Positions 1,419 through 17,236 of a DNA stretch of 26,648 bases are shown here, one piece after another (positions within the stretch are counted from its first letter, which is position 1; each line of letters starts with the position of its first letter). A model generated the notes under the pieces. It worked only from the letters and a program-made list of their open reading frames with translations. It was not told the DNA's origin and did no database searches. The DNA is taken from the IMG/VR virus record IMGVR_UViG_2531839149_000016. One strand, given 5' to 3'. The position numbers and the translations under genes are program-made. The DNA is from a virus (taxonomy: Duplodnaviria; Heunggongvirae; Uroviricota; Caudoviricetes).

Positions 1419-2489
1419 TTATTTGATTTCAATTTTGTCCCACTCCCTGCCTCTGTCATCACGATACTGTGATGCCATGGTGTCCGACTTATGCCCGAGA
1501 AGATGTTGAGCAAACTTATCGCTTATCTGCTTCTCATAGAGTCTTGCAGACAAACTGCGCAACTCGTGAAAGGTAGGCGGATCCCCTTCGAAGGAAAGAC
1601 CTGATGCTTTTCGTGCGCGCATAAAATACCTTGATACTGTGCCGGATGAAAGCGGTTCGCGACGAGTAGATGCAATTATGGTTTCTCCGCCAAGAATCTC
1701 TTTGCATTTATCAAGTGTTTCCTTCATTGATATTCCGAGAGCATCAACATGCAATACTGTTGGGATGGCAATTTTTACGCCTGTTTTGCTTTGCTCGACA
1801 TAAAGATATCCATCTACGATATCAGACCACTTCATTTCGCATAAATCACCAACTCGTTGCCCGGTAACAACAGCCAGTTCCATTGCAAGTCTGAGCCAAC
1901 ATGGTGATGATTCTGCTGCTTGATAAATTTTCAGGTATTCGTCAGCCGTAAGTCTTGATCTCCTTACCTCTGATTTTGCTGCGCGAGTGGCAGCGACAGG
2001 GTTTGTTGTTATATGGCCTTCAGCTATTGCCTCTCGGAATGCATCGCTCAGTGTTGATCTGATTAACTTGGCTGACGCCGCCTTGCCCTCGTCTATGTAT
2101 CCATTGAGCATTGCCGCAATTTCTTTTGTGGTGATGTCTTCAAGTGGAGCATCAGGCAGACCCCTCCTTATTGCTTTAATTTTGCTCATGTAATTTATGA
2201 GTGTCTTCTGCTTGATTCCTCTGCTGGCCAGGATTTTTTCGTAGCGATAAAGCCATGAATGTAACGTAACGGAATTATCACTGTTGATTCTCGCTGTCAG
2301 AGGCTTGTGTTTGTGTCCTGAAAATAACTCAATGTTGGCCTGTATAGCTTCAGTGATTGCGATTCGCCTGTCTCGGCCTAATCCAAACTCTTTACCCGTC
2401 CTTGGGTCCCTGTAGCAGTAATATCCATTGTTTCTTATATAAAGGTTAGGGGGTAAATCCCGGCGCTCATGACTTCGCCTTCTTCCCAT
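1419..2489 (-). CDS. int: Lambda-type integrase (tyrosine recombinase)
   Basis: 356-aa ORF; near-identical to lambda Int as I recall it (MGRRRSHERRDLPPNLYIRNNGYYCYRDPRTGKEF…DKIEIK); adjacent to attL. Confidence 0.97.
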   Translation of the reverse strand: MGRRRSHERRDLPPNLYIRNNGYYCYRDPRTGKEFGLGRDRRIAITEAIQANIELFSGHKHKPLTARINSDNSVTLHSWLYRYEKILASRGIKQKTLINYMSKIKAIRRGLPDAPLEDITTKEIAAMLNGYIDEGKAASAKLIRSTLSDAFREAIAEGHITTNPVAATRAAKSEVRRSRLTADEYLKIYQAAESSPCWLRLAMELAVVTGQRVGDLCEMKWSDIVDGYLYVEQSKTGVKIAIPTVLHVDALGISMKETLDKCKEILGGETIIASTRREPLSSGTVSRYFMRARKASGLSFEGDPPTFHELRSLSARLYEKQISDKFAQHLLGHKSDTMASQYRDDRGREWDKIEIK

Positions 2490-2685
2490 TTCTGATCCTC
2501 TTCAAAAGGCTACCTGTTACTGGTCGATTTAAGTCAACCTTTACCGCTGATTCGTGGAACAGATATTCTCTTCCATCCTTAACCGGAGGAGGGAATATCC
2601 TGCATTCGCGCACCCATCGACGAACTGTTTCAAGGCTTCTTGGGCGTCGCTGGCGAGCGTTCCACTCCTGAAGTGTCAAGTACAT
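2467..2685 (-). CDS. xis: Lambda-type excisionase
   Basis: 72-aa ORF MYLTLQEWNARQRRPRSLETVRRWVRE… matching lambda Xis; overlaps the int start as in lambda. Confidence 0.95.
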   Translation of the reverse strand: MYLTLQEWNARQRRPRSLETVRRWVRECRIFPPPVKDGREYLFHESAVKVDLNRPVTGSLLKRIRNGKKAKS

Positions 2686-2724: not shown

Positions 2725-2892
2725 TCAGGCGGCTTGGTGTTCTTTCAGTTCTTCAATTCGAATATTGGTTACGTCTGCATGTGCTATCTGCGCCCACAGC
2801 ATCCAGTGGTCATAGCAGTCGCTGATGTTCTCGGCTTCGATAACTCTGTTGAATGGTTCTCCATTCCATTCACCTGTGACTCGGAAGTGCAT
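2725..2892 (-). CDS. Small hypothetical protein at the position of lambda orf55 (55 aa, MHFRVTGEWNGEPFNRVIEAENISD…)
   Basis: ORF read by eye (below the 60-aa cutoff of the track); same strand and position as the small ORF downstream of xis in lambda. Confidence 0.5.
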   Translation of the reverse strand: MHFRVTGEWNGEPFNRVIEAENISDCYDHWMLWAQIAHADVTNIRIEELKEHQAA

Positions 2893-3134
2893 TTATCATC
2901 TCCAAAAAAAAAACCCCGCCGTAGCGAGTTCAGATAAAAGAAATCCTCGTCAGTGCGAGGATGCTGTTCATTGCTGCTATACACTTTTTTGCTCTCAACG
3001 TAAGCGGTAGCCCATTCTGTTGGGTTGGTGCAGTTGCTTTTAGGAAATGCTATTTACCCCTTAAATGTCGGCTGAAAGAGCTAAAATCCATGCAAAAAAT
3101 TTACGCAATTTTGTGTATTATTGTGCAGTAAGTA

Positions 3135-3737
3135 ATGAGCTATTTTCTGCGCAAAAAATGGATGGTAAATTTGTCCGGGTCAGGAAAAATTTTATGGGCG
3201 CTAAACATGAAAAAAGATTCGTATCCTTATTTGATTTGCATGACAGTTTCAGGGCTGATCTTTATTTTCCTTTTCTTCTGGTGGCGGGCAGATATCTACA
3301 GGGTCACGTTTCTTAATCAGAGTATATCCCACTATTACATTCTGTTTAGCATGGGAATAGCTTTTCTGTTATCTCTGTTTTGGGTTAAGAAGGGGATAGT
3401 AAAACAAAGCGGCTGGAAGAGTCTGTCAGCATACCTTAAGGTTTATGCAGGGATGTGCATATTTGCTGGATTTTTTCTGATTATACCCCTTACGACACTA
3501 ACTTATTTTTTGCCTGGAGAGACATCGTCTTATGTTGCACCGTATCGGTATACTTCCGGTAGTTCAAAAAGTTGTTCTGGAGCTGAGGTGGATGACCCCG
3601 ATCTACATGAGAATATTCGCATTTGCTATCCGTATGGCAATTATGAGTACGATAATATTATCTATGTTGAAAAGAAAATTAATATATTAGGTGCGGTAGT
3701 GACATATGCACAGACCGCGCGTGATGATACTGAATGA
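3135..3737 (+). CDS. Hypothetical integral membrane protein (about 3 predicted TM helices plus a C-terminal soluble domain); low-GC moron on the opposite strand to the surrounding genes
   Basis: 200-aa ORF with hydrophobic segments (LICMTVSGLIFIFLFFWW, ILFSMGIAFLLSLFWV, GMCIFAGFFLIIPLTTLTYFL); alternative starts at 3162 or 3207; AT-rich relative to flanking DNA; hairpin terminator downstream. Confidence 0.55.
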   Translation: MSYFLRKKWMVNLSGSGKILWALNMKKDSYPYLICMTVSGLIFIFLFFWWRADIYRVTFLNQSISHYYILFSMGIAFLLSLFWVKKGIVKQSGWKSLSAYLKVYAGMCIFAGFFLIIPLTTLTYFLPGETSSYVAPYRYTSGSSKSCSGAEVDDPDLHENIRICYPYGNYEYDNIIYVEKKINILGAVVTYAQTARDDTE

Positions 3738-3772
3738 TATAGTATATAGCGGGCAAGTTTTAGTTAATTTAT

Positions 3773-3805
3773 CGAGGTAATATAATTTACCTCGACTCGT
3801 TTGTT
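3773..3805 (+). terminator. Candidate intrinsic terminator (stem CGAGGTAA / TTACCTCG, then T-rich tail)
   Basis: Perfect 8-bp inverted repeat with a 6-nt loop downstream of the membrane-protein ORF. Confidence 0.4.
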
Positions 3806-3947
3806 CTGGTATTAATATTTCGCTTTACGACCGATTTTTATCTGATGATATCATGCGGTTTTCATATACTGACTTACTGTCTTTTCTCCGTTAGCGATTT
3901 TCTCCTGCTCAGCGATGATTTTATCTTTGGCTTCTAGTTAATTTCGC

Positions 3948-4169
3948 TCACTTCGAACCTCTCTGTTTACTGATAAGCTCCAGATCTTGCTGGCAACTGG
4001 CACAAGTCCGACAACCCTGAACGGCCAGTCGTCTTCGTTCATCTATCGGATCGCCACACTCACAACAATGAGTGGCAGATATAGCCTGGTGGTTCAGGCG
4101 GCGCATTTTTATTGCTGTGTTGCGCTGTAATTCTTCAATTTCTGATGCTGAATCAATTATGTCTGCCAT
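3948..4169 (-). CDS. TraR/DksA-family C4 zinc-finger protein
   Basis: 73-aa ORF with a CxxC…CxxC motif (CCECGDPI…CRTCASC); common small protein of lambdoid early-left regions. Confidence 0.75.
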   Translation of the reverse strand: MADIIDSASEIEELQRNTAIKMRRLNHQAISATHCCECGDPIDERRRLAVQGCRTCASCQQDLELISKQRGSK

Positions 4170-4267
4170 CTTTCATTAATCCCTGAATTGTTGGTTAATA
4201 CGCTTGAGGGTGAATGCGAATAATAAAAAAGGAGCCTGTAGCTCCCTGATGATTTTGCTTTTCATGT

Positions 4268-4483
4268 TCACCGTTCCTTAAAGACGCCGTTCAACATGCC
4301 GATCGCCAGGCTTAAATGAGTCGGTGTGAATCCCATCAGCGTTACCGTTTCGCGGTGCTTCTTTAGTACGCTACGGCAAATGTCATCGACGTTTTTATCC
4401 GGAAACTGCTGTCTGGCTTTTTTGATTTCAGAATTAGCCTGACGGGCAATGCTGCGAAGGGCGTTTTCTTGCTGAGGTGTCAT
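4268..4483 (-). CDS. Hypothetical phage early protein (position of lambda orf61)
   Basis: ORF starting MTPQQENALRSIARQ… (71 aa from the internal ATG; the track ORF extends to 4549); same strand as exo/bet. Confidence 0.5.
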   Translation of the reverse strand: MTPQQENALRSIARQANSEIKKARQQFPDKNVDDICRSVLKKHRETVTLMGFTPTHLSLAIGMLNGVFKER

Positions 4484-4559
4484 TGAACAAGCCCCATGTC
4501 GGCAAGCATAAGCACACAGAATATGAAGCCCGCTGCCAGAAAAATGCATTCAGTGGTTG

Positions 4560-4751
4560 TCATACCTGGTCTCTCTCATCTGCTTCTGCTTTCGCCACCA
4601 TCATTTCCAGCTTTTGTGAAAGGAATGCGGCTAACGTATGAAATTCTTCGTCTGTTTCTACTGGTATTGGCACAAACCTGACTCCAATTTGAGCGAGGCT
4701 ATGTGCCATCTCGATACTCGTTCTTAACTCAACGGGAGATGCTTTGTGCAT
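4560..4751 (-). CDS. Hypothetical phage early protein (position of lambda orf63)
   Basis: 63-aa ORF directly downstream of the orf60a-like gene in the leftward operon. Confidence 0.5.
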   Translation of the reverse strand: MHKASPVELRTSIEMAHSLAQIGVRFVPIPVETDEEFHTLAAFLSQKLEMMVAKAEADERDQV

Positions 4752-4906
4752 ACAGCTCCCCGTTTATTATTTATCTCCTCAGCCAGCCGCTGTGCTTTCA
4801 GGGGATTTCTGATAACAGAAAGGCCGGGAAATACCCAGCCTCGCTTTGTAACGGAGTAGACGAAAGTGATCGCACCTACCCGGATATTATCGTGAGGATG
4901 CGTCAT
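4724..4906 (-). CDS. Hypothetical phage early protein (position of lambda orf60a)
   Basis: 60-aa ORF whose ATG overlaps the exo stop in an ATGA arrangement, as orf60a does in lambda. Confidence 0.5.
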
Positions 4907-5583
4907 CGCCATTGCTCCCCAAATACAAAACCAATTTCAGCCAGTGCCTCGTCCATTTTTTCGATGAACTCCGGCACCATCTCGTCAAAACTCGCCATGT
5001 ACTTTTCATCCCGCTCAACCACGACATAATGCAGGCCTTCACGCTTCATGCGCGGGTCATAGTTGGCAAAGTACCAGGCATCTTTTCGCGTCACCCACAT
5101 GCTGTACTGCACCTGGGCCATGTAAGCCGATTTTATTGCCTCGAAACCACCGAGCCGGAATTTCATGAAATCCCGGGAGGTAAACGGGCATTTCAGTTCA
5201 AGGCCGTTGCCGTCACTGCATAAACCATCGGGAGAGCAGGCGGTGCGCATATTTTCGTCGCGATAGATGATCGGGGATTCAGTAATATTCACGCTGGAAG
5301 TGAATTCAAACAGGGTTCTGGCGTCGTTCTCGTACTGTTTTCCCCAGGCCAGCGCCTTAGCATTAACTTCCGGAGCCACACCGGTGCAAACCTCAGCCAG
5401 CAGGGTGTGGAAGTAGGACATTTTCATGTCAGGCCACTTCTTTCCTGAGCGGGGCTTTGCTATCACGTTGTGAACTTCTGAAGCGGTGATGACGCCGAGC
5501 CGTAATTTGTGCCATGCATCATCCCCCTGTTCGACAGCTCTCACGTCGATCCCGGTACGCTGCAGGATAATGTCCGGTGTCAT
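4903..5583 (-). CDS. exo: Lambda exonuclease (Red alpha)
   Basis: 226-aa ORF matching lambda Exo ([40 protein letters not shown]…GEQWR). Confidence 0.97.
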
Positions 5584-6365
5584 GCTGCCACCTTCTGCTC
5601 AGTGGCTTTCTGTTTAAGGAATCCAAGAGCTTTCACTGCTTCGGCCTGTGTCAGTTCTGACGATGCGCGAATGTCGCGGCGAAATATCTGGGAACAGAGC
5701 GGCAATAAGTCGTCATCCCATGTTTTATCCAGGGCGATCAGCAGAGTGTTAATCTCCTGCATGGTTTCATCGTTAACCGGAGTGATGTCGCGTTCCGGCT
5801 GACGTTCTGCAGTGTATGCAGTATTTTCGACAATGCGCTCGGCTTCATCCTTGTCATAGATACCAGCAAATCCGAAGGCCAGACGGGCACACTGAATCAT
5901 GGCTTTATGCCGTAACATCCGTTTGGGATGCGACTGCCACGGCCCCGTGATTTCTCTGCCTTCGCGGGTTTTGAATGGTTCGCGGCGGCATTCATCCATC
6001 CATTCGGTAACGCAGATCGGATGATTACGGTCCTTGCGGTAAATCCGGCATGTACAGGATTCATTGTCCTGCTCAAAGTCCATGCCATCAAACTGCTGGT
6101 TTTCATTGATGATGCGGGACCAGCCATCAACGCCCACCACCGGAACAATGCCGTTCTGCTTATCAGGGAAGGCGTAAATTTCTTTCGTCCACGGATTAAG
6201 GCCGTACTGGTTGGCGACGATCAGCAATGCGATGAACTGCGCATCGCTGGCATCACCTTTAAATGCCGTCTGGCGAAGAGGGGTGATCAGTTCCTGTGGG
6301 TCGACAGAATCCATGCCGACACGTTCAGCCAGCTTCCCAGCCAGCGTTGCGAGTGCTGTACTCAT
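5580..6365 (-). CDS. bet: Lambda Bet single-strand annealing protein (Red beta)
   Basis: 261-aa ORF matching lambda Bet ([261 protein letters not shown] from memory, near-identical here); ATGA overlap with exo. Confidence 0.97.
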
Positions 6366-6370
6366 CCGTT

Positions 6371-6667
6371 TTATACCTCTGAATCAATATCAACCTGGTG
6401 GTGAGCAATGGTTTCAACCATGTACCGGATGTGTTCTGCCATGCGCTCCTGAAACTCAACATCGTCATCAAACGCACGGGTAATGGCTTTTTTGCTGGCC
6501 CCGTGGCGTTGCAAATGATCGATGCATAGCGATTCAAACAGGTGCTGGGGCAGGCCTTTTTCCATGTCGTCTGCCAGTTCTGCCTCTTTCTCTTCACGGG
6601 CGATCTGCTGGTAGTGACGCGCCCAGCTCTGAGCCTCAAGACGATCCTGAATGTAATAAGCGTTCAT
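6371..6667 (-). CDS. gam: Lambda Gam (short form, RecBCD inhibitor)
   Basis: 98-aa ORF matching lambda GamS ([21 protein letters not shown]…VDIDSEV); the upstream extension that would give the long form runs into a stop 19 codons upstream. Confidence 0.95.
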
Positions 6668-6742
6668 GGCTGACCTCCTGAAAATGGCTGTGAAAATATC
6701 GCCCGCGAAATGCCAGGCTGATTAGGAAAACAGGAAAGGGGA

Positions 6743-7033
6743 TTAGTGATTCAGGCCGTTACCGCGTCCGTCGAGAAAAACTTCCACGAGCAAATCACGG
6801 GTATAAGTGCGCTCGATGCCGCGATGCAGATAAAGCCGTCCGCGTAAATTAGCTGATGCAGTCCAGGTACCATCTTTGTGTTTGACCAGCATTCCTGGCA
6901 TGACCGCGCCGCGATTAACGGTCTGCGTTCCGTAATGTTGATGAACCATAAAAACTCCTGCCCGTAAGCTGGGCTGCTGAACATATAGAGACTTCTGCGC
7001 GTATTCAGGCGGTGGATGGCCGCCGGTTGTCAT
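6743..7033 (-). CDS. ORF at the position and frame of lambda kil (possible Kil-like host division inhibitor); start uncertain
   Basis: Stop lies where lambda kil ends relative to gam; the track gives 96 aa, with internal ATGs at about 6901 and 6892 that would give a roughly 50-aa product; I could not reconcile the first few codons of the track ORF with the printed bases near 7020 by eye; no cIII-like coding sequence follows. Confidence 0.4.
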
Positions 7034-7457: not shown

Positions 7458-8285
7458 TTAAACTTGGGGAAGTATTTTTTTTGCAAAATCAATAGTTTCT
7501 TTGTGGTTGGATGCAGGTATATGATTTATTTTCTTAGCATCCATAGTTCTCTTTATGATGTCAATAACTTTGCTTTGGCCTGAGTTTGGTGATTCAGGAG
7601 TTTCAATTGTGAATAAAATGTCATCAAGTGAAAGCAGGTTTTCTTCTGCTGCTCGAGTTATTCTCATCACCCAAGTATCACTATGCTCCATCATTTTTCC
7701 TGGTTCAGCTTGAGTGAATGCCAGAGGTTTGATGGCACATTGGATCCTGTCATGCTTCTTGGCGACCAATGGCATTGAGAACTTTGCGAAATACCCATCA
7801 ATGGTTGCTTGTTTGAAGACGTTCTTCAATCCATCTATTCTATCGATACTTCGTTTTAGCTCTCTGGCTAGAACATCTTCACGGCGCTCTTTTGTGTAGT
7901 CAGAGTGGTTTACATATTTATTGTAAATGCGGGCCAGCTCTTCTTTTGGGTTTTCGCTGAGAATCACTCTCGTAGAACTGAACTGAAAAATTGATTCTTT
8001 TTTGTTTGTAAAATATCTGAAGAATTGTGCAAGTTGTTGATGTCCAACAATCTGGGTCGCATGCATTTTTGCGAACTGTAGTTCTCTTTGTATTGAGTCT
8101 TTTGCTACAGGGAAAATACAATCATCATGGAAAAAATTCTTTACACGAGAGTCATTTCGCTTTGTGAGCTGGAAATCAAAGTAATTTTCTTTTGGCGCGC
8201 ACAGAAGTACGCCTATGTTTGCGAATTCTTCAGTCTCCGCATAAGGCGCATAGCGAACGATGCTATATAGGCATGGAGTTGTCAT
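7458..8285 (-). CDS. DUF3037-family protein
   Basis: ORF starting MTTPCLYSIVRYAPYAETEEFANIGVLL…, the characteristic N-terminal signature of DUF3037 proteins as I recall it; its ATG overlaps the upstream gene's stop (ATGA), implying translational coupling; the track ORF extends to 8300 from a non-ATG start. Confidence 0.75.
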   Translation of the reverse strand: MTTPCLYSIVRYAPYAETEEFANIGVLLCAPKENYFDFQLTKRNDSRVKNFFHDDCIFPVAKDSIQRELQFAKMHATQIVGHQQLAQFFRYFTNKKESIFQFSSTRVILSENPKEELARIYNKYVNHSDYTKERREDVLARELKRSIDRIDGLKNVFKQATIDGYFAKFSMPLVAKKHDRIQCAIKPLAFTQAEPGKMMEHSDTWVMRITRAAEENLLSLDDILFTIETPESPNSGQSKVIDIIKRTMDAKKINHIPASNHKETIDFAKKILPQV

Positions 8286-9031
8286 TCTATTGCGCTCCAA
8301 AATTCATCACAATCACCTTTGTCTAGCGTAGTGCAGACAAAAGGTAAAAACTCCTCATCTACTATCCACTCTTCTGGAATTTCGTCAAGGATAGCAGGAA
8401 GCTTGTGTAAACTGTTAACGACCCTCTGGCGGTACTCTACGCGATCCACTAAATCATATTGCCATTTGCGGTTACCAGGGCCGTACACGTGCACAGAAAA
8501 ATCTTCAGGTCCAGCATTCTGATCAAATGAGAGATTATGGTCAATCAGATAATACTTATCGTTACTGATGTCATAAAGGATGTTAACGTTTCCACCTTTG
8601 TCAGTAAGCGTTCTGTCTGCATTTAATATCCATTTATCAAAAACATAGATTAATTTTTGCTGTTCGACTGGGATGATCGTTTCGTTTCTTGACTGCGTAA
8701 ACGTTAACGCTATTGCACCGTCAATGAACAATGAAGCAAAGGCATATCCTGTACAAATTTGTTGCTGCAGATCAGGTGAGTACTCTATAAGTTCCTCTGG
8801 CACAAATACGATTTTAAAGTCAGGTAAAGGAAGGCCGATATCATTAGCCAAACACGCCGAAATGAACTCAGCTAAGAGATTTTTCGGGGGCATTGATGGT
8901 TTTGACTTCAAAACATACAACTGCCCATCATCACATTTGCAAAGAAATGGCTGAGTGGAACCTTCATTGATGCGACGTATTACTTCAACGACATTAGGTA
9001 TTGCACTATTGCTGCTCGCTACGCACTCCAT
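8282..9031 (-). CDS. Small HipA-like / protein-kinase-like-fold protein (putative Ser/Thr kinase)
   Basis: About 250 aa; kinase-like motifs readable in the translation: beta3-Lys (YVLKSK), catalytic-loop-like ILNADRTLTDKGGNVNIL (D…N), and a DFG-like LIDHNLSF; AAGGG RBS 6 nt upstream of the ATG at 9031. Confidence 0.65.
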   Translation of the reverse strand: MECVASSNSAIPNVVEVIRRINEGSTQPFLCKCDDGQLYVLKSKPSMPPKNLLAEFISACLANDIGLPLPDFKIVFVPEELIEYSPDLQQQICTGYAFASLFIDGAIALTFTQSRNETIIPVEQQKLIYVFDKWILNADRTLTDKGGNVNILYDISNDKYYLIDHNLSFDQNAGPEDFSVHVYGPGNRKWQYDLVDRVEYRQRVVNSLHKLPAILDEIPEEWIVDEEFLPFVCTTLDKGDCDEFWSAIE

Positions 9032-9153
9032 CACTAACCCTTATGTGATTCAAGTCTTCCATCTCATTACTCCGCATCTCAAAGAGCGGTTTAACACTGC
9101 GTGTTTAAAGAAAAACAACAGGCCTATTGCTGTAACTGTTTTTTAGCCTCACT

Positions 9154-9843
9154 TTAACCATGCTTCCTATATGTCTGCGGCATGCTCCCAATAACCTTAC
9201 CGAAGATGAACACCCGGTTCATCTCGTCTTTCTCGATCGGGTCCCACGGTGAGTAGCTTTTGTTATCAGAGATGACCAGCAGCTTATCCTTCATCATTTG
9301 CAGGCGCTTTACATGGGCTGTGTCGTCGTACAGAAACGCATAGATACCATCACCGTCGAAAGATTTAACTGTGATATCAACGAACAGCAGATCACCTGGT
9401 TCGATCGTTCCTGACATGCTGTCACCACGCACGTTAATGATGCGGATATTTTCCGCCTTCCTACCATCGAACATGTGACGAGCATCGTCAAACGAGTACT
9501 CAACCGAGCGTAGAACTTCTACAAACTCACGGTTGATGACTCCCGGCCCAGCACTGACTTCTATATCAAGAACGTCAATCTTGAAGTATTTGGAATGGCT
9601 GACAGTTGATTGTATTGGTTGCACTGTACTGTCTGACATATTTCCAACGCCAGAAGATAACCATTCTGCGCGCACACCCAAAGCGTTCGCGATCTCCACG
9701 ATTTTAGTTGTTTGATTAGCTTTCCCTGTTTCGATTTTCTGAATAGCAGCTTGGCTAACCCCGACCAAATCCCCAAGCGCCTTTTGTGTAAGGCCTCGCG
9801 CTAATCTGGCTTCTTTAAGTCTTTCTGAGAGTGTTGTTTTCAT
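9154..9843 (-). CDS. cI: CI-like prophage repressor (N-terminal XRE HTH + C-terminal S24 LexA-like autopeptidase domain)
   Basis: 229 aa from MKTTLSERLKEARLARGLTQKALGDLVGVSQAAIQKIETGK…; C-terminal GDSM…K motif typical of S24 self-cleaving repressors; divergent from cro. Confidence 0.9.
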   Translation of the reverse strand: MKTTLSERLKEARLARGLTQKALGDLVGVSQAAIQKIETGKANQTTKIVEIANALGVRAEWLSSGVGNMSDSTVQPIQSTVSHSKYFKIDVLDIEVSAGPGVINREFVEVLRSVEYSFDDARHMFDGRKAENIRIINVRGDSMSGTIEPGDLLFVDITVKSFDGDGIYAFLYDDTAHVKRLQMMKDKLLVISDNKSYSPWDPIEKDEMNRVFIFGKVIGSMPQTYRKHG

Positions 9844-9947
9844 AGTCCAAATGTACAACCAAGGTTTTATTCCATCAAACGAAAATGGTTGTTGACTAAA
9901 AACAACCATAGTTTTAATCTTGATTCAAATTAACCACGGAGGTTGTT
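9844..9947. promoter_or_regulatory. oR / pR / pRM divergent promoter-operator region
   Basis: pR candidate: -35 TTGACT, 17-bp spacer, -10 TAATCT, then GGAGG and the cro ATG; palindrome ATGGTTGTTGACTAAAAACAACCAT overlaps the -35; on the opposite strand TTGATG-17-TACATT lies just upstream of the cI ATG (near-leaderless, as for lambda pRM). Confidence 0.6.
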
Positions 9948-16519: not shown

Positions 16520-17044
16520 TTATTGTTTAACCCATAATAATTCATTGACATTGAATCCCAACTTTTGAGCGGTTCGCACATAGTCTGCTTTTACTTTATC
16601 TGGAATAGTTGGGGTCCTTGCCAGAATCCATAGGTATTCTCTGTTCGGACCACTGACAAGAGCATACTTATACTCATCATCCAGTTTGATTACATTATAG
16701 CCACCATAGAAGGGGCCAAAAAACGAAACCTTCAATGCTGCAGTTTTAGTATCTCCAGTAAAGTATGCTTTACCTTCGCTCTCGCTCCATTTATTTTTCG
16801 TTGGATCGTATCCACGGTTAAGTACACGAATCCCTCCGTCGTTCCGTTTTCCATAAGTAGCGCTGACCTGTTCCAGACCACGTTCGAACCGGTTCTCGAG
16901 GCGAGCTATTTCATACCATTTTCCGAGGTAGCGGTTGGCGTCAAAATTTGTAATCGGCTGCACACCTTTAGGTGGTGTCGGGGCCTTACATGCTATAAGA
17001 GTGAAAGAGAGTGCAATGCCAGTCAACACAGGCCATAACTTCAT
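16520..17044 (-). CDS. Blc-like outer-membrane lipocalin (lipoprotein)
   Basis: 174-aa ORF with lipobox (LIAC) and strong resemblance to E. coli Blc (…NFDANRYLGKWYEIARLENRFERGLEQVSATY…FFGPFYGGYNVI…EYLWILARTPT…), but clearly divergent from the chromosomal blc. Confidence 0.85.
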   Translation of the reverse strand: MKLWPVLTGIALSFTLIACKAPTPPKGVQPITNFDANRYLGKWYEIARLENRFERGLEQVSATYGKRNDGGIRVLNRGYDPTKNKWSESEGKAYFTGDTKTAALKVSFFGPFYGGYNVIKLDDEYKYALVSGPNREYLWILARTPTIPDKVKADYVRTAQKLGFNVNELLWVKQ

Positions 17045-17236
17045 AATAAATCCTGTACTTTTGATAGTTGAGAGTAAGTATGAAAGATAGATGATTACGA
17101 CCGATCACTTAAAGAACTTTCATACTATATTAGGAATAGTCCATAACAGAAAAATTGTCAGTGATGACGCCAGAAAGGCAATTTATTCCGTGCACTACAC
17201 AGTTTATGTGTTAATGAATTAGTCAAGGGGGAGAAT

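Follow-up and report, generated by a model that had tools for sequence, protein, structure and literature searches.

The 26,648-nucleotide stretch of DNA analysed here (IMG/VR virus record IMGVR_UViG_2531839149_000016, Caudoviricetes; the whole stretch is called the window below) contains a 434-like lambdoid prophage of Escherichia coli in which a single small gene, encoding a membrane protein, runs against all of its neighbours. Such a locus raises the question of whether the gene is genuine, how it came to be there and what it does for its carrier. A sequence-only reading had described it as a low-GC moron lying antisense to the early-left operon, and this orientation holds: the plus-strand open reading frame (ORF) converges on the leftward int/xis/exo/bet genes, and every neighbour from int (1419-2489) through kil (to ~7033) is located on the minus strand. 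The analysis described below revealed a conserved gene on a mobile cassette, which probably protects the lysogen.

The predicted plus-strand ORF exists (3135-3737, 200 aa as an open frame). However, the length of about 200 aa given by the sequence-only reading is 24 residues too long, and the true start is ATG 3207, which yields a protein of 176 aa. We placed the start there because the closer relatives begin at that methionine (residue 25 of the 200-aa version, invariant among them) and because an in-frame stop, without an alternative start, lies 6-45 nt upstream of it in nine of 13 homologous loci (the copy of phage 434 was left out of this count). Public records use three different starts, giving 200 aa (RefSeq), 188 aa from a TTG codon (the 434 record) or 176 aa (other records); the starts at 3135 and at TTG 3171 were dropped in favour of 3207 on the same grounds. 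The gene is therefore listed as follows.

3207-3737 (stop included), plus strand: coding sequence of the membrane protein, 176 aa, defined from the starts of relatives, the structure model and the ratio of nonsynonymous to synonymous substitution rates (dN/dS)

Comparison of the window gene with the P2-type Escherichia coli allele and with Salmonella alleles gave dN/dS values of 0.09-0.16, the proportions of differing sites being 0.57-0.72 (synonymous, pS) and 0.11-0.25 (nonsynonymous, pN), with synonymous sites near saturation. A dN/dS this low at near-saturated synonymous divergence means that the frame is more than a chance ORF, and the substitution pattern indicates that the gene is real and under purifying selection. 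That the gene could instead be a decaying, unexpressed passenger without function is barely conceivable. Its weak Shine-Dalgarno sequence, weak promoter consensus and absence from the literature would fit such a fate; strong purifying selection over saturated synonymous divergence, an architecture kept down to 16% identity and the presence of the gene in 915 of 5426 complete E. coli genomes all oppose it.

The DNA is also as AT-rich as had been claimed. Its GC content is 0.375 for positions 3070-3827 and 0.392 for the ORF, compared with 0.505 for the early-left genes at 3948-7033 and 0.448 for the whole window; in a GC profile, the neighbouring DNA has 46-50% GC versus 37.5-39% for the ORF region. 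Features at and around the cassette are listed here.

2989-3934, no strand: variable cargo slot, from BLAST against L114 and L115, sister prophages integrated at the same attachment site on the ybhC side
3893-3937, minus strand: 15-codon remnant of an ead/Ea22-like gene, LEAKDKIIAEQEKIA, from tblastn and DNA similarity
3039-3128, plus strand: diverged relic of a P88-like (P2-family) cos/genome-termini junction with ~105 bp deleted, from alignment to the ends of P88_4B11

The common left flank stops at 2988 and the right flank resumes at 3935 (L115) or 3958 (L114). Between these points the sister prophages have either a gene with an ASCH domain or an ead/Ea22-like gene that is intact, in each case leftward. 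Presence or absence at the same position and deviant base composition, two marks of a moron, were both found, and the term is also in keeping with the opposite orientation of the gene, the terminator-like hairpin that follows its stop codon and a conserved extended -10-like element. A P2-like pair of prophages shows the same presence/absence pattern (L019 has the cassette, L020 lacks it), and the same cassette occurs in this unrelated phage family, P2/P88-like. We interpret the feature as a self-contained mobile accessory cassette (a moron) of ~0.8 kb.

The placement of the gene "where lambda carries ea22" was a good one, as the 15-codon Ea22-like remnant survives at the right edge of the slot. 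It is matched by residues 84-98 of the Ea22-like protein of L020 at 73% identity (tblastn, E = 0.53 in a small search, which is weak alone), at the DNA level it shares 77% identity over 44 bp with L019 and L020, and the assignment is consistent with the synteny of L115.

The source of the cassette was revealed by the comparison with L019, a P2/P88-like E. coli prophage. Positions 3070-3827 of the window correspond to 6165-6920 of L019 in a single high-scoring segment pair (76% identity over 761 bp), and the P2-like copy takes the place of the 3′ end of an Ea22-like gene which is intact in cassette-less relatives. The homology extends 59 bp into the P88-type backbone, a stretch also present in the cassette-less prophage L020. 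P88-group phages match the relic stretch, and the backbone at this point is the termini (cos) junction: the ends of linear P88_4B11 meet at GGAAGGGCA/AAAATTCG, and the window has GAAAGAGCTA/AAATCC (the slash marks the junction).

Analysis of 90 fetched loci showed that 65 are lambdoid, with alleles 97-100% identical, 14 are P2-like, with proteins 45-80% identical to that of the window, and 11 are neither. Salmonella P2-like prophages carry divergent alleles (59-71% protein identity) in the same place, and a DNA search detected the P2-type allele in 77 complete genomes, in 62 of which the searched 3′ segment of 371 bp is at least 80% covered. The cos-junction relic, together with the diversity of the P2-like alleles as opposed to the near-uniform lambdoid ones, indicates that the lambdoid lineage acquired the cassette from the cos-adjacent hotspot of a P2/P88-like phage. 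By the same sequence evidence, this acquisition was probably single and recent.

The TTGTGCA direct repeats at 3100-3130 invite a reading as binding sites of a regulatory protein, whether CII, DnaA or one of the OmpR type. We dropped this reading, since the repeats make up the right end of P88-like genomes regardless of the cassette; that they could be terminase recognition elements is our guess. A 56-aa "putative membrane protein" ORF of phages 434 and mEp332 (2961-3131, plus strand) spans the tL4 terminator, the junction and the cos relic. It looks spurious: no PHROG match was found for it, and a 105-bp indel breaks its frame in the P2-like sequence.

The same stretch bears on a proposal implied by the 434 GenBank record, which marks a CII site at the equivalent of 3111-3124. 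According to this proposal, the gene would serve the phage life cycle and be expressed transiently, from a CII-dependent promoter, while lysogeny is being established. The sequence TTGTGTATTATTGT does fit TTGY-N6-TTGY; however, this pattern occurs in the window at chance frequency (nine found, 7.5 expected), and the sequence lies within the right end of P88-like phages, which lack lambda CII, even where the cassette is missing, so that it does not qualify as a CII promoter. The gene is, moreover, kept in P2-like and chromosomal contexts. We rejected the site and regard this role as very improbable.

The signals in and next to the cassette are as follows.

3143-3171, plus strand: candidate promoter with a weak -35-like TTTTCT (3143-3148), a 17-nt spacer and an extended -10 element composed of TG (3163-3164) and TAAATT (3166-3171)
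3772-3795, plus strand: terminator-like hairpin 35 nt after the stop codon, with a 9-bp stem (-12.9 kcal/mol, z = -3.8)
2915-2962, minus strand: two leftward terminator hairpins (tL4 of phage 434; a GC hairpin, then U9) just left of the cassette, given as context only

The motif TGnTAwwwT is found 44-48 nt upstream of the ATG in six of the nine phage-borne copies, with a chance expectation of 0.4-1.9% per locus. Two of the six (L015 and L023) have leaders otherwise unlike that of the window, L015 giving no BLAST alignment and L023 no evident similarity. Transcription is predicted to start near 3177-3179 with a leader of ~29 nt, and a start near 3178 would exclude the upstream start codons. The conserved motif suggests that a weak extended -10 promoter within the cassette probably drives the gene in the lysogen. 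N-antiterminated leftward transcription from pL would run antisense through it, since the gene converges on the pL operon. A literature search by accession returned no transcript data for the gene.

The "clean hairpin terminator" of the sequence-only reading is a stable 9-bp hairpin, matched in folding by only one of 200 shuffled sequences, although "clean" is somewhat generous for a hairpin whose tail, ACUCGUUUGUUCUGG, is poor in U. A weaker hairpin occupies the homologous place in the P2-like copy of L019. A search of positions 2850-3960 against Rfam detected nothing.

The start of the main gene has a weak Shine-Dalgarno sequence. Just upstream, AGGA (3182-3185) forms a good Shine-Dalgarno sequence for another ATG at 3194, which lies out of frame 13 nt ahead of the real start and opens an overlapping frame of 40 codons. 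Conservation of this arrangement extends to the E. coli P2-type copy but not to Salmonella; the frame may act as a short upstream ORF that affects translation of the weakly initiated main gene.

The three transmembrane (TM) helices proposed earlier were recovered as Kyte-Doolittle segments 5-28, 40-61 and 74-103 (176-aa numbering), and AlphaFold agrees, placing helices at 5-29, 38-61 and 70-101, followed by five strands (mean predicted local distance difference test score, pLDDT, of 85 for the whole protein and 88 for the C-terminal domain alone). This domain is hydrophilic, as claimed, with 74 residues and nine tyrosines; the "several Cys" attributed to it are exactly two. The predicted topology is as follows.

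N-terminus: cytoplasm (predicted)
Residues 5-29: TM1 (predicted)
Residues 30-37: periplasmic loop 1 (predicted)
Residues 38-61: TM2 (predicted)
Residues 62-69: Lys-rich cytoplasmic loop 2 (predicted)
Residues 70-101: TM3 (predicted)
Residues 105-171: periplasmic five-strand OB-like barrel with Cys123 and Cys140 (predicted)

This arrangement follows from the positive-inside rule, which assigns loop 1 and the barrel to the periplasm, and the N-terminus together with loop 2 to the cytoplasm. In a family alignment of 33 members, with identity down to 16%, loop 2 has a mean net charge of +3.7, and its Lys and Arg residues outnumber those of loop 1 in 32 of the 33. We infer from these charges that the protein is oriented N-in, with its C-terminal domain in the periplasm. 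Cys123 and Cys140, the only residues invariant throughout the alignment, flank the second and third strands, and all members except one (32/33) have exactly two cysteines in this domain; the pair could form a periplasmic disulfide. The AlphaFold model also has a strand in loop 1 (residues 34-36), which would pair with the barrel.

Conservation is highest in the periplasmic module (0.56) and lowest in TM2 and TM3 (0.34-0.38). By this pattern, the helices resemble anchors, and the protein seems to work by binding outside the membrane rather than as a pore. This distribution bears on the possibility that the protein acts by abortive infection, sensing infection at the envelope, whereupon its helices would oligomerise, depolarise the membrane and kill the infected cell. 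Single-gene membrane proteins are known as effectors of abortive systems, the location of the relatives in a phage hotspot (see below) would suit such a role, and a "2TM beta-strand rich effector" is among the weak matches of a BFVD structure search (E = 0.38, not significant). However, variable helices fit this mechanism poorly, TM2 and TM3 being the least conserved parts and lacking conserved polar residues, and neither a PADLOC match nor a significant BFVD match was obtained; we consider abortive infection improbable.

Searches for known families were largely negative. Scans of Pfam and NCBIfam returned no family for the protein, and the only match, over its last 88 residues, was to phrog_1416, which is of unknown function. 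The BFVD search gave nothing significant (best E = 8e-3, with a template-modelling score, TM-score, of 0.30), and a PDB sequence search gave no link to any solved structure. The model suggests an OB-like fold with no convincing structural relative. Nine matches of profile positions 122-158 (the Cys...Cys segment) to a giant repeat protein of 3074 aa (P0121; E = 1e-7) were set aside, as they are probably due to a compositional Cys-x-Cys motif and not to homology. The gene is not listed in the supplements of DefensePredictor.

Relatives of the gene in P2-like prophages of E. coli and Salmonella (P0039, P0043 and P0048) are located between the portal gene gpQ and the replication gene gpA, next to cos; the window copy lies outside a P2 phage. 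The gpA-gpQ locus is a defence hotspot, in which P2 itself carries old and tin (Rousset et al. 2022, PMC9122126). In supplementary file 6 of that study, WP_000711113, the allele from E. coli, is entered as "hypothetical" and, as far as the text of the study shows, the gene is not among the systems cloned there. The sequence-only reading had proposed lysogenic conversion or superinfection exclusion as the role of the gene, and the position of the relatives in this hotspot makes such a role more plausible.

Between the portal gene and the membrane-protein gene, the P2-like prophages of Salmonella have a pair of small overlapping genes in the same orientation (81 or 123 aa and 119 aa, without Pfam matches). 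The pair is presumably separate hotspot cargo, since it is absent from the other copies. Its positions are listed by locus.

5284-5888 in L004 and L007: small Salmonella gene pair
5106-5836 in L016: small Salmonella gene pair
5227-5831 in L015: small Salmonella gene pair

We tentatively favour superinfection exclusion, in the form of a block to entry at the periplasmic face of the inner membrane, by analogy with SieA of P22. This reading is based on (i) the hotspot location of the relatives, (ii) the autonomy of a single gene in very different contexts, (iii) the architecture of an anchor plus a periplasmic binder, and (iv) the precedent of SieA. The 176-aa protein would be held in the inner membrane by three anchoring helices, displaying a disulfide-stapled OB-like barrel and the conserved loop 1 on the periplasmic face. 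It would be expressed in the lysogen from its own weak extended -10 promoter and opposed by convergent pL transcription during lytic growth. The periplasmic module would bind some conserved partner on the periplasmic side of the inner membrane, either a host protein of this membrane that serves genome entry or the entry apparatus of the incoming phage, and binding would block DNA delivery by the superinfecting phage. Judged by its conservation, the module more likely has a conserved target in the host than a rapidly evolving one in the phage.

Several observations weigh against an entry block. A conserved periplasmic domain is unusual for the arms-race partner of phage proteins; only about a third of the cloned hotspot candidates gave anti-phage activity (PMC9122126); and no PADLOC model matches the protein at E <= 1. 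No sequence relation to SieA was detected (hhalign of the family profile against P22 SieA, type A, probability 0.2%). Literature searches by accession, on exclusion by 434 lysogens and on mEp332 yielded nothing on the gene: no paper, transcript or phenotype. On the side of expression, a generic sigma-70 consensus scan gave no promoter upstream of the gene, and the U-tract of the terminator hairpin is poor. Finally, copies are present in bacterial chromosomes, in Klebsiella and, as a syntenic orthologue outside any recognisable prophage, in species of the Enterobacter cloacae complex; both findings fit a role in cell physiology as well.

6001-6510 in L008, L024-L027 and L031: Enterobacter orthologue, beside a HAMP-GGDEF gene and an AI-2E transporter gene

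The left flank of the Enterobacter orthologue varies, a LysR gene being present in some cases and missing in others. The orthologue is 64-97% identical among species, with dN/dS of 0.28-0.35, and evolves faster than its neighbours. Its existence keeps alive two further explanations. In the first of these, the protein would be a lysogenic-conversion factor of host physiology, whose periplasmic domain binds a component of the host envelope and alters stress tolerance, signalling, transport or colonisation, with no direct anti-phage role. We consider this unlikely: the diversity of alleles is found mostly within the phage defence hotspot, no gene partner is conserved across the contexts examined, and former prophage defence genes often become fixed in chromosomes. 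In the second, an orphan immunity protein would neutralise, at the outer face of the inner membrane, a toxin acting in the periplasm or on the membrane (a colicin, a bacteriocin, or a contact-dependent or type VI effector). With no toxin gene adjacent in any of the contexts examined, and no sequence match or convincing fold match to known immunity families, toxin immunity seems rather improbable.

Among known systems, SieA provides the best functional analogy for the entry block that we favour. It is a prophage accessory gene with its own promoter, and its product of 162-164 aa has three predicted inner-membrane TM helices and blocks delivery of phage DNA (PMC10883804). The window protein resembles it in being a small inner-membrane protein with about three TM helices (predicted here). 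In SieA, by contrast, TM1 and TM2 are separated by a soluble helical segment, a C-terminal beta domain and conserved cysteines are lacking, and the gene occupies another genome position.

The relation to the cargo of the P2 gpA-gpQ hotspot is one of location: the relatives sit exactly there, and the lambdoid copy retains a piece of the cos flank, although the gene is not among the tested or named systems, has no PADLOC match and, in the window, lies in a lambdoid early-left region. Classical lambdoid morons include HK97 gp15, reported to block DNA entry, and bor and lom of lambda. Like them, the window gene is an extra gene that relatives lack, of deviant composition, with candidate signals of its own and a membrane product; it differs in belonging to an unrelated sequence family and in being early-left and convergent with pL, whereas they are placed among late genes.

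Short NfeD proteins (E. coli YbbJ) share the plan of a few TM helices followed by an OB-like barrel of ~60-70 residues, and an "NfeD-like C-terminal domain" is a weak BFVD match (E = 0.22). However, there is no Pfam NfeD match, hhalign against YbbJ gave 0.2%, no SPFH/stomatin neighbour is present in the contexts examined, and the barrel of the window protein is predicted to be periplasmic and disulfide-bonded. With hhalign probabilities of 0.2% each, both an identity with NfeD and homology with SieA were rejected. The small beta-barrel proteins of the DUF1093/YxeA-like type (PDB 3npp, 2k5q) are also among the closest known systems.

A broader proposal, which we hold to be somewhat doubtful, is that these proteins constitute a new, Enterobacteriaceae-restricted family of one-protein entry blockers, in which a disulfide-stapled OB-like domain on the periplasmic face of the inner membrane would bind a conserved host entry component and hence exclude several phage families at once; the family would shuttle between P2-type cos hotspots and lambdoid early regions, and would have been domesticated in Enterobacter. 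The members identified all come from Enterobacteriaceae (Escherichia, Shigella, Salmonella, Citrobacter, Enterobacter, Klebsiella, Cedecea and Pseudescherichia), and the family is small, with 61 representatives at 50% clustering matching among 1.84 billion proteins.

Phage 434 is a founding model of molecular genetics, and yet this gene, found in about one sixth of complete E. coli genomes, has neither name, family nor phenotype. An exclusion function would be of interest on three counts. The protein would extend, by a compact mechanism acting in the periplasm, the short list of exclusion proteins whose mode of action is understood; it would affect the performance of phage-therapy cocktails on E. 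coli and Salmonella lineages that are common in the clinic; and the cassette would be a documented transfer of defence cargo from a P2-type cos hotspot to a lambdoid genome, complete with its cos scar. If its function is another one, the conserved periplasmic module would still mark an unknown interaction at the enterobacterial inner membrane.

The protein had not been recognised in the sequence-only reading. It is indeed uncharacterised, yet already known as a gene of phage 434: the 434 record contains it as CPT_434_36, "putative membrane protein", and it is also deposited in mEp332 and 2B8. An older record of a 434 fragment labels the beginning of the gene "ORF-22+", and the 434 genome announcement makes no mention of CPT_434_36. 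Positions 3000-3850 of the window are 98.6-99.9% identical to phages 434, 2B8 and mEp332. The 915 E. coli genomes with the cassette carry it on the chromosome every time, and 906 of them cover at least 80% of the 851-bp query. The gene as such is thus deposited and uncharacterised; what is newly documented is the history of the cassette, from the P2 cos hotspot to the lambdoid early-left region. The surroundings of the cassette are listed below.

Start of the window: host gene ybhC, followed by the lambdoid prophage
1419-2489, minus strand: int
2467-2685, minus strand: xis
2725-2892, minus strand: 55-codon ORF
3948-4169, minus strand: TraR/DksA-like gene, followed by orf63/orf60a homologues and then by exo, bet, gam and kil, all on the minus strand

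Two other parts of the window deserve mention. A low-GC gene pair (35-43% GC; minus strand, 7458-9034) adjoins the cI-like repressor gene (9154-9909), in the slot where lambda has rexAB. Its products are a kinase of the HipA_2 family (8282-9034) and a DUF3037 protein (7458-8300), and the pair is a candidate toxin or defence module.

Regions 16520-19278 and 25365-26648 contain genes untypical of phages, namely those for a lipocalin (Blc-like), a 2-thiouracil desulfurase/DUF1722 protein, an AraC-type regulator and an MFS transporter, the last of which is cut by the end of the window. Either truncation of the prophage or a large region of cargo may account for this right part of the window.

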